Origin: Amoebidium appalachense
Lineage: Eukaryota > Protista > Ichthyosporea
Assembly (NCBI GenBank): GCA_963693365.1
Contig: CAVNZM010000013.1
Coordinates: forward strand, 4,824,140 to 4,888,139
Reading direction: 5' to 3'
DNA: 64,000 nt
Shown here: positions 34,907 through 64,000 of the stretch, piece by piece
Layout: the number at the start of each line of letters is the position of its first letter
How positions within the stretch are numbered: the stretch's first letter is position 1
Notes under the pieces: generated by a model
Seen by the model: the letters and a program-made list of their open reading frames with translations, nothing else
Database searches by the model: none
Told to the model about the DNA's origin: nothing
Position numbers and translations under genes: made by a program

Positions 34907-35359
34907 TTGGACTGCTCCCCCTAGTTGAACAGTTTGGGGGGAAAGCCGAAGGCTCTAAATTCGGATATTCGGGATTTGGTTGTAAGGTTTTACGGGTCGG
35001 GCCGAAGGCCTTAACGGGCCGCAGGCCCGCCTATTGGGCCGCCAGGCCCGGGGCCCCGGGGACCGGGGGCCTCCCCACCCACGCGGGCCACCCCCCGGCC
35101 CGGCCCGGCCCGCGGGGGCACGGGGAGTAGAGCTCTACTCCCCGTGCCCCCGCGGGCCGGGCCGGGCCGGGGGGTGGCCCGCGTGGGTGGGGAGGCCCCC
35201 GGTCCCCGGGGCCCCGGGCCTGGCGGCCCAATAGGGCGGGCCTGCGGCCCGTTAAGGCCTTCGGCCCGACCCGTAAAACCTTACAACCAAATCCCGAATA
35301 TCCGAATTTAGAGCCTTCGGCTTTCCCCCCAAACTGTTCAACTAGGGGGAGCAGTCCAA
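34907..35359. repeat. 453-bp spacer-less palindrome, putative opened hairpin terminus
   Basis: Centre gagtagAG|CTctactc at 35132/35133. Arms of 226 and 227 bp are reverse complements except for one extra G near 35234. Confidence 0.97.
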
Positions 35360-35490
35360 TATTGCTTCGCTCTTTCCAGTAGATCACTTCCAAATATCTA
35401 TCACGTGATGACCTTCCCGATTGTTCTTCCAATGACATTTTCTATCACTATCGACAGTTCTCCAATATTAGAACAGAAAACGGTTTATAC

Positions 35491-35582
35491 CCACATGGCC
35501 AGATGGCCAGATCAAATCCAGTCTGTGAGCAGGGGGGGGGATCCACCTGAAGTCAAAACAATCTGGCCATCTGGCCATGTGG
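35491..35582. repeat. 22-bp perfect inverted repeat with a 48-bp spacer
   Basis: ccacatggccagatggccagat (35491-35512) and atctggccatctggccatgtgg (35561-35582). Confidence 0.95.
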
Positions 35583-35615
35583 CCATAGAATAGATTAGTA
35601 TGTAAGGCACTGGCT

Positions 35616-37035
35616 GCCACCACTGGGGGGCGTGGTTCCGGCAGCAGGGGGGGAGGGGAGGCACACGTGCACAGGAGGCCGGGGAGAGTGGGGGAAGCAT
35701 GTTGGAATGCCACCACTGGGGGGCGTGGTTCCGGCAGCAGGGGGGGAGGGGAGGCACACGTGCACAGGAGGCCGGGGAGAGTGGGGGAAGCATGTTGGAA
35801 TGCCACCACTGGGGGGCGTGGTTCCGGCAGCAGGGGGGGAGGGGAGGCACACGTGCACAGGAGGCCGGGGAGAGTGGGGGAAGCATGTTGGAATGCCACC
35901 ACTGGGGGGCGTGGTTCCGGCAGCAGGGGGGAGGGGAGGCACACGTGCACAGGAGGCCGGGGAGAGTGGGGGAAGCATGTTGGAATGCCACCACTGGGGG
36001 GCGTGGTTCCGGCAGCAGGGGGGAGGGGAGGCACACGTGCAGGGGGGCTGGGGAGAGTGGGGGAAGCATGTTGGAATGCCACCACTGGGGGGCGTGGTTC
36101 CGGCAGCAGGGGGGGAGGGGAGGCACACGTGCAGGGGGGCTGGGGAGAGTGGGGGAAGCATGTTGGAATGCCACCACTGGGGGGCGTGGTTCCGGCAGCA
36201 GGGGGGGAGGGGAGGCACACGTGCACAGGAGGCCGGGGAGAGTGGGGGAAGCATGTTGGAATGCCACCACTGGGGGGCGTGGTTCCGGCAGCAGGGGGGA
36301 GGGGAGGCACACGTGCACAGGAGGCCGGGGAGAGTGGGGGAAGCATGTTGGAATGCCACCACTGGGGGGCGTGGTTCCGGCAGCAGGGGGGGAGGGGGAG
36401 GCACACGTGCAGGGGGGGCTGGGGAGGCACACGTGCACAGGAGGCCGGGGAGAGTGGGGGAAGCATGTTGGAATGCCACCACTGGGGGGCGTGGTTCCGG
36501 CAGCAGGGGGGAGGGGAGGCACACGTGCAGGGGGGCTGGGGGAGTGGGGGAAGCATGGCACCGCTGGGGAATGGCACCACTGGGGGCGTGGTTCCGGCAG
36601 GCCAGCAAGAGGGCGGATATGTGAGGCACACATGCTGGCGAGGAGGGCAAGGAGGGCGAGACTGGCGAGCCACCCACAGTGAGAAAGTATTATGTATGCA
36701 TAGAGCATGTTGCCTGTGCAGCAGGTAGATGTGCATGAGGCACCAGAGTGGTGCAAGTTTCTGGTGGCTCTGTTTGACTAATAAAGGCATATGCTGCAAC
36801 CACTGGGGGCCTGGTTCCGGGAGGAGGGGGGGCTGGGGGAGGGGGAGGCTGGGGGGCCGGGGGGGGAAGCATGGCACCGCTGGGGGCGTGGTTCCGGCAG
36901 CAGGGGGGGCTGGGGGGAGGGGGAGGCTGGGGGGCCGGGGGGGCGGAGGAGGCGGGGGGGCCGGGGGGCGGAGGAGGGGGGGCTGGGGGCCTCACAGTTG
37001 GTTCCGGGGGGCACGGGGGGGGGGGCTGGGGGGGG
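35616..37035. repeat. Subterminal G-rich tandem array, ~93-bp unit, about 10 copies plus a degenerate tail
   Basis: gccaccactggggggcgtggttccggcagcagg recurs at 35616, 35709, 35802 and onward; each unit contains CACGTG. Confidence 0.95.
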
Positions 37036-62434: not shown

Positions 62435-62772
62435 GCGTGAAGCCTTAAAAATGTGCGCTCGTGTTACGGGAGGAGGGGGGGGGGGGAGGGGCGTGCACCC
62501 TGTTCTCCCCCCCACCACCCGCTACTCAGTCCAACGATTTCTTCACAAACCAGAGAGAACGCGGCGGCTTCTGTGAACGACTGGCCCGTCATTTCATAGA
62601 GAATAGCCTCGCCGGTACCCACCATGTCTCCCGAAAGCCAAGAGAACACCGTGGCACACCGTTACAATGTCTCCGAAATTTCTAGAGAACAGGGTCGTGG
62701 GGTTGACCCTTTTCGCCCTGTGCAGGACCGCTTTTATTGAATAAAAGGAGCCCCTCCCGGTCGGCCTACAGC

Positions 62773-63062
62773 TTAGGCCTCCTCCACCGGACTCGTCTTG
62801 ACTTGAAACGGGGCCAGTAGCTTGTCCGTGTCTTCGATTGACACCAGCCTGCTATACTGCACGCCCAGATCTGCTGTTGCCTCGTGCCAGTCGTAGAACA
62901 GATACCCCATGCGGATGCGCCCATCCCTGAACAGTGTGGCATGATCCGTGTCCCGCACATGCTTGATGGCCTCGGTCAGCGCATCGAGCCGCTGCTTCAT
63001 GCCGGTTCTCCGTGTCTTGCCGTCGATCTTGAACCCGTGCGGGTTGAACCGGATGAACATGA
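62773..63062 (-). pseudogene. 5'-truncated paralogue of the nuclease at 51457-52872
   Basis: MFIRFNPHGFKIDGKTRRTGMKQRL..LFRDGRIRMGYLFYDWHE closely matches that protein's C-terminus; the catalytic residues and Zn repeats are missing. Confidence 0.85.
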
Positions 63063-63185
63063 ACATGATGAACATGAACAGATGCCATTCTCATATTAGT
63101 GACCCAAAATGGTGAAACGAAATGAAATCGAGCTCGTCCTTTTATACGCTCCCCCCCCCCCCTCCCCCCTCCCCCCAAACCAATT

Positions 63186-64000
63186 ATGCTTCCCCTCCGT
63201 AAGATGCTTAAATGTAGAGAGCTTGTGTGCAACGGGCCTGCCCGCCTCCCCGATTCGGTCACGTTCGACAGTGGCAGCCTAAATCTCGATCACGCCGCCG
63301 CCTGCGTGGCCCAGGTCCTCCCCTACTCAGTCCCGGCCGAGGGGCCGTGCGCGGGGCTGACACTGGGCGCGGCGGTGGGCATCCTGAACAGCGCGCTGAC
63401 AGTCAATGACGATAACGTGTTGTCCACGGTGGAGGAAATCAACGCAACATTGAGAAGCCATCAAGCTAGTCTGGCTCTCAAGGCTGAGAAGACTGCACTG
63501 GCAGCGCTTGCCGAGGTGGTTAATACAAAAGCAGATGAAGTTAGTGTGGCGGAGCGCCTAGACCAGAAAGCAGATAAGATCACGATCGACACAACTCTCG
63601 ATGGCATCACGCAGGAGTTTGGTGACCGGTGCACAAACATCGAACAGCAAGTCCTCCTAAAAGAAGAGAAGAGTGTGGTGGCCCAGCTCCGCAGTGACTT
63701 CACCGAACGGACTGTCTATGTAGACAGCGAATTGTCGAACAGGGAGACCAAGGCCGTGGTTGCAACATTGAGAACCGATTTCACTAACAGAACCATCTAC
63801 GTAGACGGCCTTCTAACCAAAAAAGCGGAAGCTACCATTGTGGATGCTTTGCCGAGCACCGTGCAGACACAGGGCACAACCCTAGCGGCGAAAGCAGACT
63901 CAAGCACTGTGCAGGCACTCCAAACAACCGTCCAGACTCAAGGCACTACGCTGGCCGGAAAAGCAGAATCGTCCACAGTTCAGGCACTCCAGACCACCGT
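63186..64000 (+). CDS. Coiled-coil fibre-like protein, running off the window (absent from the ORF track)
   Basis: Open frame MLPLRKMLKCRELVC..NTKADEVSVAERLDQKADK..TVQTQGTTLAAKADSSTVQALQTTVQTQGTTLAGKAESSTVQALQTT; KAD-type repeats of the kind seen in viral fibre shafts. Confidence 0.75.
   Translation, partial: MLPLRKMLKCRELVCNGPARLPDSVTFDSGSLNLDHAAACVAQVLPYSVPAEGPCAGLTLGAAVGILNSALTVNDDNVLSTVEEINATLRSHQASLALKAEKTALAALAEVVNTKADEVSVAERLDQKADKITIDTTLDGITQEFGDRCTNIEQQVLLKEEKSVVAQLRSDFTERTVYVDSELSNRETKAVVATLRTDFTNRTIYVDGLLTKKAEATIVDALPSTVQTQGTTLAAKADSSTVQALQTTVQTQGTTLAGKAESSTVQALQTT

Follow-up and report, generated by a model that had tools for sequence, protein, structure and literature searches.

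A palindromic terminus at the edge of a gene-dense island

We analyzed a 64,000-nucleotide stretch of the genome of the ichthyosporean Amoebidium appalachense (assembly GCA_963693365.1, contig CAVNZM010000013.1, positions 4,824,140 to 4,888,139 of the forward strand; here called the window, with positions counted from its first base), in which host DNA gives way at position 34900 to a block that is likely the left end of a giant endogenous viral element. The host flank (1 to 34900) is microsatellite-rich, CpG-depleted, and intron-rich, and its last base is the final one held in common with an isolate that does not carry the element. Simple repeats make up 22% of this flank versus 0.7% of the interval from 47 to 64 kb, and the observed-to-expected CpG ratio after masking is 0.62 versus 0.96. 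On the element side, 15 chosen open reading frames (ORFs) account for 73% of positions 46890 to 64000, forming a gene-dense, intron-poor island within intron-rich host DNA.

The element begins with a spacer-less palindrome of 453 bp (34907 to 35359), whose arms of 226 and 227 nt meet at an axis between 35132 and 35133. With a spacer of 0, 226 of 227 positions pair, the only irregularity being a single G indel; pairing is exact for 103 pairs out from the axis and reaches 226 when the one indel is allowed. The folding z score is −43, and none of 100 shuffled sequences was equally stable; at the level of sequence, this bears out the hairpin that a preliminary description, made from the sequence alone, had placed at the element's edge. 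Among palindromes without a spacer, the next in rank elsewhere in the window are AT microsatellites with a half-length of at most 23. GC content climbs from 48% at the ends of the arms to 86% at the axis, and short palindromes are nested within the arm. A separately stable structure inside a single arm was ruled out (z score of −0.5). A search of metagenome contigs for the first 24 bases of the arm found none. We think it likely that this palindrome is a viral chromosome's hairpin end, opened into double-stranded DNA.

The insertion is polymorphic between isolates

Seventeen of the 24 listed sequencing runs carry part of the junction stretch (33500 to 35600), and seven carry half or more of it; we compared contigs from four of them, designated X1, X2, X8, and X9. 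Run X8 comes from a differently labelled isolate, and X1 and X2 come from separate studies 13 years apart. An X8 contig of 1,447 letters, whose orientation follows from 122-letter overhangs that records 1 and 17 have in common, tracks the flank from 33894 to 34900 (with 15 differing letters and 23 gap letters) and then continues into 461 unlike letters. Since this contig departs from the window sequence at 34900, 6 nt before the palindrome starts, the block is an insertion that is polymorphic between isolates and has its edge no more than 6 nt from the palindrome. The six intervening bases (34901 to 34906) could be filler or could be host or target bases that differ in the other isolate.

The host contigs of the other two runs lead up to the same place. 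Those of X1 (single-copy depth of 107.8) and X2 (35.5) end at 34921 and 34920, respectively, entering the outer left arm by 14 to 15 letters; this supports the join but falls below our bridging rule of 31 letters, and either run may be the assembly's own source. The palindrome is not a free-standing miniature inverted-repeat transposable element, a candidate that we ruled out, as no duplication flanks it and the X8 isolate also lacks the inner sequence (no skip from 34900 to 35360 is listed).

The terminal sequence belongs to a repeated family

Contig depth relative to single-copy depth is a rough guide and not a copy number. By this guide, the arm stands at 9.6x, 10.5x, and 12x single-copy depth in X1, X2, and X8, and the subterminal sequence stands at 14 to 16x and up to 76x, 65x, and 34x in the same runs. 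Both thus lie far above single-copy depth in each of these runs, and variants of the apex occur, so the terminal sequence belongs to a repeated family. Its members differ in several ways. Copies with shorter arms run into the identical inner sequence (loose end at 35290, in 9 contigs of X1 and 2 contigs of X8), and some copies switch to another inner sequence after 35363 (X1, X2, and X8). An apex variant joins 35081 to 35050 with 10 letters between them, at 11x in X1 and 1.7x in X2; this second apex form may be imperfectly paired.

Inward of the palindrome lies a conserved subterminal block (35360 to 35600) containing a perfect 22-bp inverted repeat (35491 to 35512 and 35561 to 35582) that the preliminary description had overlooked. 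Its halves are separated by 48 nt, and in other copies this spacer carries short tandem repeats; the inverted repeat is a candidate binding or resolution site. Subterminal tandem arrays follow for about 3 kb (35615 to 38557), as previously proposed, with a 92-bp unit repeated 8.8 times (35615 to 36426) and then a compound array based on a 47-bp unit (37164 to 38557). Farther in are a 32-bp array of 53.7 copies (41829 to 43544) and arrays of 96 bp (2.8 copies), 37 bp (7 copies), 78 bp (4.4 copies), and 60 bp (12.6 copies). The last two, at 46211 to 46601 and 47754 to 48578, lie inside the element in minus-strand open frames.

A JmjC gene with predicted introns lies near the terminus

The element carries a KDM4/5-like JmjC gene on the plus strand (43581 to 45700), with exons predicted at 43581 to 43918, 44191 to 44349, 44493 to 44605, 44942 to 45140, and 45455 onward. 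The JmjC domain is split over two consecutive exons, which match positions 11 to 63 (E = 0.04, under the cut-off) and 64 to 105 (E = 8e-8) of the Pfam JmjC profile and align to residues 178 to 235 and 238 to 276 of KDM4D. A spliced KDM4-like demethylase had been predicted here; the domain stands and introns are predicted, with the qualification that only the first of these exons is closest to KDM4, the second having its best match in plant JMJ14/KDM5 (E = 1e-5). The iron ligands, an H-x-E motif and a later H, are present. A putative likeness of 43634 to 43792 to a JmjN domain was not borne out, as searches of the gene did not detect one, and an exon search run with longer lengths recovered 0 of 11 candidates.

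Five introns are predicted in this gene, all of them GT..AG, and their removal keeps a single open frame of 566 codons; the spliceosomal introns announced for the element as a whole are predicted in this gene only. The orphan ORF at 41031 to 41760 (plus strand, 242 residues) can be spliced in frame as a predicted first exon and may supply the JmjC protein with a new domain at its N terminus. It has 0 relatives among 1.84 billion representatives and no Atlas match, and its structure model is unusable (predicted local distance difference test [pLDDT] score of 31). A relaxase/HUH identity for this ORF, raised by a Pfam match at E = 0.013 (16 bits against a cut-off of 24.6), was dropped given the same lack of relatives, Atlas match, and usable model. 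The stretch between this ORF and the remaining exons (41761 to 43580, plus strand) is a predicted intron, or else an intergenic spacer, of 1.8 kb that is filled by the 32-bp array.

Repeats occupy four of the five predicted introns: the 32-bp array, a reversed subterminal unit, the 96-bp array, and the 37-bp array. The reversed unit, in the second intron (43919 to 44190), matches the subterminal array at 37060 to 38700 in 36 of 39 nt, pointing to exchange between the telomeric array and the intron. The reading frame shifts in the last exon, just past the last iron ligand, a feature missed in the earlier reading. The segment beyond the shift, which we take to be the conserved end of KDM4, sits in another frame, which reflects either damage to this copy or a fault in the assembly; damage to the gene is likely. 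With JmjC as the only chromatin enzyme, and its frame shifted, the "chromatin toolkit" previously attributed to the element was an overstatement.

Affiliation of the element

One gene that bears on affiliation encodes a protein with Cys repeats and a PD-(D/E)XK-type endonuclease domain (51457 to 52842, minus strand), from a family common in the Nucleocytoviricota. It has 969 relatives, and a model built from an 80-sequence alignment (pLDDT of 77.5) gave 33 matches at E ≤ 0.001 against viral structures in Foldseek, the best at E = 7e-12; the top named fold matches are endonucleases of Faunusvirus, Pithovirus, Cedratvirus, and Marseillevirus. The corresponding PDB search returned none at E ≤ 0.001 and only weak PD-(D/E)XK-type rows. 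One locus carrying a relative, checked for giant-virus genes, had one partial capsid match under the cut-off and no VLTF3. Elsewhere in the block, a truncated paralogue of the endonuclease C terminus (62773 to 63090, minus strand; 68 of 93 residues identical, 73%) is a sign of decay or local duplication.

In favor of a hairpin-ended giant virus are the palindrome at a polymorphic junction, the single-copy host contigs that enter its arm, the repeated terminal family with its variant copies, the switch in simple sequence repeats and CpG content, the endonuclease of giant-virus-type fold, and the hairpin ends already known from poxviruses, asfarviruses, chloroviruses, and kaumoebavirus. Both the gene-dense, intron-poor island and the polymorphism between isolates agree with what is known of giant endogenous viral elements in this organism. 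Sarre et al. (2024, PMC11244446) report that Amoebidium carries giant-virus insertions with kinship to the Mamonoviridae, 90 of them chromosomal and 42 unplaced. By their account, these insertions are reactivated by 5-azacytidine and polymorphic between isolates, with integration called stochastic and boundaries set by homology and methylation. Multi-exon, JmjC-only KDM4-like genes occur in 39% of them, for which an anti-silencing role was proposed (PMC11244446), so the precedent named in the preliminary description is confirmed in the text of that study. Marks of this class also include core genes of nucleocytoplasmic large DNA viruses (capsid, A32, VLTF3, and D5) and hypermethylation in a non-CGC/GCG context. 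Our element fits this published class, and its cargo and the anti-silencing idea were already known.

Several observations weigh against a giant-virus end of this kind. The Pfam scan, which covered 70 of the 165 listed frames (those omitted are mainly repeat-array and short overlapping frames), found no capsid, A32 ATPase, VLTF3, polB, resolvase, protelomerase, or integrase in the 29.1 kb of the element within the window, beyond which the element continues. Neither a transposase nor a tyrosine recombinase was matched in the same 29.1 kb, in which very divergent capsids could have escaped; likewise, the scanned frames include no D5, only an SF3 helicase without a primase. The 46 relatives of this helicase are primase-helicases at 22 to 34% identity and do not place the element. 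Among the contigs listed for the compared runs, none crosses the axis and none bridges the junction by 31 letters on each side. In X2, the outer arm stands at 10.5x and the arm-to-inner junction at 10.3x, whereas a ratio of about 2:1 would be expected from two arms per end; palindromes may be lost from libraries as snap-back fragments, or else most copies lack the full outer left arm. Finally, pox-type hairpins are imperfectly paired, whereas the palindrome in the window is paired.

Possible origins of the palindromic end

On balance, we think it slightly more likely than not that the left end of a giant virus lies at 34900, that the palindrome is its opened hairpin tip, and that this end was joined to the chromosome by host end-joining. 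The free viral genome would be a linear molecule whose tip, at 35132|35133, is covalently closed and leads into the conserved resolution or binding block and the satellite arrays. An end with both arms would result if this molecule were nicked about 226 nt from the tip and copied around the hairpin, or if it broke next to a head-to-head replication junction; the origin of palindromes by either route is established for pox-type and telomere-resolvase systems. In the nucleus, a break in host DNA would then have received the viral end, with 6 extra bases at the join and no visible microhomology. Host RNA polymerase II and the spliceosome would express the early, host-style genes close to the end, above all the JmjC gene with its predicted introns, and these genes would counteract silencing through H3K9, as already proposed for the Amoebidium elements. 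Both this dependence on the host machinery and the action against H3K9 methylation are extrapolated from relatives. End-joining with filler is favored over a duplicated target because the six junction bases are unmatched in the X8 isolate; that isolate is about 1.5% divergent, and a change of its own at these bases is possible, which weakens the argument.

A broader proposal, which we regard as doubtful, is that integration by hairpin telomeres is routine for a lineage of giant viruses that replicates in the nucleus of an animal relative: tens to hundreds of insertions would share the terminal module (palindrome, inverted-repeat block, and arrays), their ends would refold upon release to prime replication, and the spliced demethylase near the end would be a latency gene. 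If true, this would be a third, parvovirus-like path to giant-virus latency, beside the DDE-integrase path of punuiviruses and the tyrosine-recombinase path of phaeoviruses.

It is somewhat less likely still that a hairpin-ended giant virus integrates by a programmed reaction, in which a DDE integrase or recombinase would cut a fixed site beyond the axis and make a target-site duplication, with both ends bearing the complete palindrome and refolding after excision. The retention of the terminal block in tens of copies would suit such a reaction. Retroviral-type integrases use TG ends, and the end read from 34908 begins with TG, as expected by chance in about 1 of 8 cases. The six bases between flank and palindrome equal the duplication length of punuiviruses, recombinases and integrases are enriched among the Amoebidium insertions as described (PMC11244446), and palindromes lie beside target duplications in virophages as well as in polinton-like viruses (PLVs; bioRxiv 10.64898/2026.07.28.741278). 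Yet a duplicated target should also appear in the empty site, and the X8 match stops at 34900, before the six bases; moreover, the 29 kb contain no integrase, and depth gives no sign of two arms per end.

We give little credence to the idea that the viral end was no hairpin and that the palindrome arose in a one-off fold-back during repair, when a linear piece of viral DNA was captured. Equal depths (1:1) in X2 are consistent with a single outer arm in most copies, and a short self-complementary tip could conceivably prime fold-back synthesis. Against this, the second apex form at 11x and the arm-length variants with the same inner sequence point to a trait of the family; the arm is GC-graded toward the axis with nested short palindromes, and the axis has no spacer.

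Equally improbable, in our estimate, is an oversized polinton-like or adintovirus element, or a giant transposon with a Plavaka-type repeat, having palindromic terminal repeats and captured viral genes. Consistent with such an element, the window contains no giant-virus core gene, terminal palindromes are documented in virophages and PLVs, DUF5906 helicases are not specific to giant viruses, and the top Atlas lead for the last ORF is a mostly Preplasmiviricota cluster (0.89, a lead only). However, such elements total about 24 to 30 kb, and here 29.1 kb passes without a match to pPolB, capsid, ATPase, integrase, transposase, or tyrosine recombinase, whereas the JmjC gene and the endonuclease point to giant viruses.

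An artefact of assembly at the palindrome or the join, for instance through the fold-back of a long read, is barely credible: although no listed contig crosses the axis and the join is entered by 14 to 15 arm letters only, two studies 13 years apart yield host contigs that stop within the outer left arm, and the X8 contig departs from the window sequence 6 nt ahead of it. A mis-join at about 34.9 kb, which the preliminary description had named as a ground for refutation, is unlikely.

Comparison with known viral termini

Like the published Amoebidium elements (PMC11244446), the block is a gene-dense, intron-poor island in an intron-rich host, has a JmjC gene predicted to be multi-exon, and is polymorphic between isolates. 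It differs in that no terminal structure is described for those elements, whereas the window has the palindromic end of a repeated family at the junction and shows no core genes. The main text of that paper contains 0 mentions of hairpin, palindrome, telomere, or target site, and its text-readable supplements contain 0 of hairpin or palindrome.

The endogenous virophages and subtype 4 PLVs of Halocafeteria seosinensis provide the closest parallel for a terminal palindrome in an integrated DNA virus, read there as a hairpin that primes replication (bioRxiv 10.64898/2026.07.28.741278); like ours, theirs are linked to non-pPolB replication genes. In the virophage model of the same text, both ends carry the full palindrome and refold after excision. 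The differences are considerable: palindromes of 52 nt in elements of about 24 kb with RVE integrases and target duplications, against 453 bp in an element of more than 29 kb with giant-virus-type cargo and no evident duplication. The marks of virophages, PLVs, and adintoviruses (capsid, ATPase, and integrase within about 20 to 30 kb) were not detected in our 29.1 kb, where divergent capsids could escape, and the marks of Plavaka giant repeats (a flanking Plavaka transposase, tyrosine recombinases, and tandem gene clusters) have no match at the element end in the window.

Among giant viruses, the punuivirus giant endogenous viral element of Chlamydomonas combines long inverted terminal repeats that bear satellites with 6-bp target duplications and latency genes rich in introns (bioRxiv 10.1101/2024.09.03.611062 and 10.64898/2026.10.09.758095). 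Our element resembles it in its variable terminal satellite arrays and many terminal relics, and its predicted introns and putative early genes near the end would parallel the spliceosomal introns of the punuivirus latency genes and the early genes at its ends. Punuivirus ends, however, read ACC..GGT with 6-bp duplications, and the end in the window reads TTGG; the main texts of both reports contain 0 mentions of "hairpin." The phaeovirus proviruses of Ectocarpus (PMC13236599) are likewise integrated giant viruses for which covalently closed telomeres at a palindrome were inferred. There, as described, the telomere site is internal and a tyrosine recombinase integrates a circle at CC, whereas in the window the palindrome is the junction itself. 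A perfect palindrome is the mark of a replicated telomere in protelomerase-type ends (N15 and phaeovirus), and the window sequence fits it, given its exact central pairing and single indel. The telomere resolvase gene of such systems has no match in the window, past which the element continues.

Hairpin ends are also reported for poxviruses, asfarviruses, chloroviruses, and kaumoebavirus (PMC11814242 and PMC7909422), in which, as here, the hairpin tip adjoins terminal repeats. Those Nucleocytoviricota have incompletely paired flip/flop loops on free genomes, whereas the copy in the window pairs all the way to its axis and lies integrated in the host genome. Medusavirus (Mamonoviridae), reported as the nearest kin of the Amoebidium elements, is linear, has no RNA polymerase, replicates in the nucleus, and has seven intron-bearing genes (PMC6450098); its spliceosomal introns parallel those predicted here, and we found no account in it of integration or of the structure of the ends.

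In the literature within reach of our search, which excluded most subscription journals, figure panels, and bioRxiv supplements, we found no giant-virus insertion reported to have an opened hairpin end where it meets the host DNA. Within this scope, a 453-bp palindromic end that lies at the exact polymorphic junction and is common to a repeated family appears to be undescribed for giant-virus insertions. The cargo, introns, arrays, and anti-silencing idea are of already known kinds. The terminal architecture and the repeat-filled introns had been singled out earlier as the parts most likely to be new; the former is indeed absent from the text of PMC11244446, whereas terminal arrays and introns are known from the accounts of punuivirus and medusavirus.

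The entry of giant viruses into eukaryotic chromosomes has been worked out for two lineages only, and Amoebidium-type insertions have been described as stochastic. A conserved end sequence at an exact polymorphic junction makes the route of integration directly testable in existing long-read assemblies. Should the hairpin reading of the palindromic end hold, such viruses would gain entry to the host genome through their ends. A search for the motif could locate the ends of each insertion and establish its arm lengths, target duplications, and completeness, as well as the genome topology of a virus that has never been isolated; if it proves negative, the element remains one more member of a published class.

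Other genes of the element and the host flank

Most of the remaining families proposed for the element were recovered. On the minus strand, these are a protein with two MYND fingers (53053 to 54468; Pfam E = 5e-17), a multi-C2H2 zinc-finger protein (55653 to 56240; E = 6e-18), the SF3 helicase (DUF5906; 56460 to 58013; E = 1e-17), and a Fic-domain protein (59339 to 60139; E = 3e-15). The helicase has no N-terminal primase domain, although many of its relatives carry one; it matches the helicase domain of a solved phage primase (6K9E/6K9C; E = 8e-16), and a search of viral and metagenome contigs found no relative. A class-III aminotransferase-like protein (60701 to 62434, minus strand; E = 6e-9) had been passed over.

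Other assignments fared less well. The T5orf172 gene was not sustained, since the GIY-YIG-like C terminus of the ORF at 48618 to 49832 (minus strand) scores 16.9 to 17.4 bits against a cut-off of 20. Of the nucleases, the endonuclease described above stands; the second, at 58446 to 59222 (plus strand), has no family, no match in three libraries, and no viral locus found, and carries what we take to be a nuclease-like motif. The supposed fibre gene, a coiled-coil repeat ORF that extends past the window end (63198 to 64000, plus strand), has weak PHROG matches to a minor head protein (E = 1e-5) and a neck passage protein (E = 4e-5), no PDB match, and Atlas leads below 0.9; it is not supported as a fibre gene and could possibly, on these weak matches, encode a virion protein. 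The ORF at 38817 to 39530 (minus strand) belongs to no family and has low-scoring coiled-coil matches only.

One of the proposed clusters of CCAAT boxes is present, at 54697 to 54873 between genes, with six boxes in 200 nt, a density reached by 1 of 300 resamples; overall, the motif is under-represented (50 seen versus 68 expected). A GC-rich repeat family also occurs between adjoining genes (58065 to 58200, 59224 to 59315, and 60475 to 60651). The regions upstream of the Fic and aminotransferase genes (60234 to 60454 and 62496 to 62717) share 78% identity across 223 nt, and a 24-mer located where the aminotransferase ORF ends (60720) recurs directly upstream of Fic (60211), indicating a duplicated cassette with exchanged cargo.

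In the host flank, the exon closest to the insertion (33662 to 33944, minus strand) is spliced to one ending at 32133. A contig of X9, an RNA-like run, skips from 33662 to 32133 over a GT..AG intron, placing a transcribed host exon about 960 nt from the insertion edge. X9 does not cover the element, which is no indication of its expression either way. Farther downstream, this minus-strand gene has a weak RGS match (exon at 23063 to 23188, E = 0.0025). A low-depth X9 contig (34131 to 34608) stops about 300 nt short of the insertion and suggests a second host transcript beside the site. The sole Rfam match is a tRNA-Arg(TCG) gene (27957 to 28032, minus strand), apparently inside the span of the host gene. 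A host stretch of about 160 nt occurs in three near-identical copies (28835 to 28995, 29730 to 29900, and 30180 to 30335) and is possibly a repeated exon or a small mobile element.

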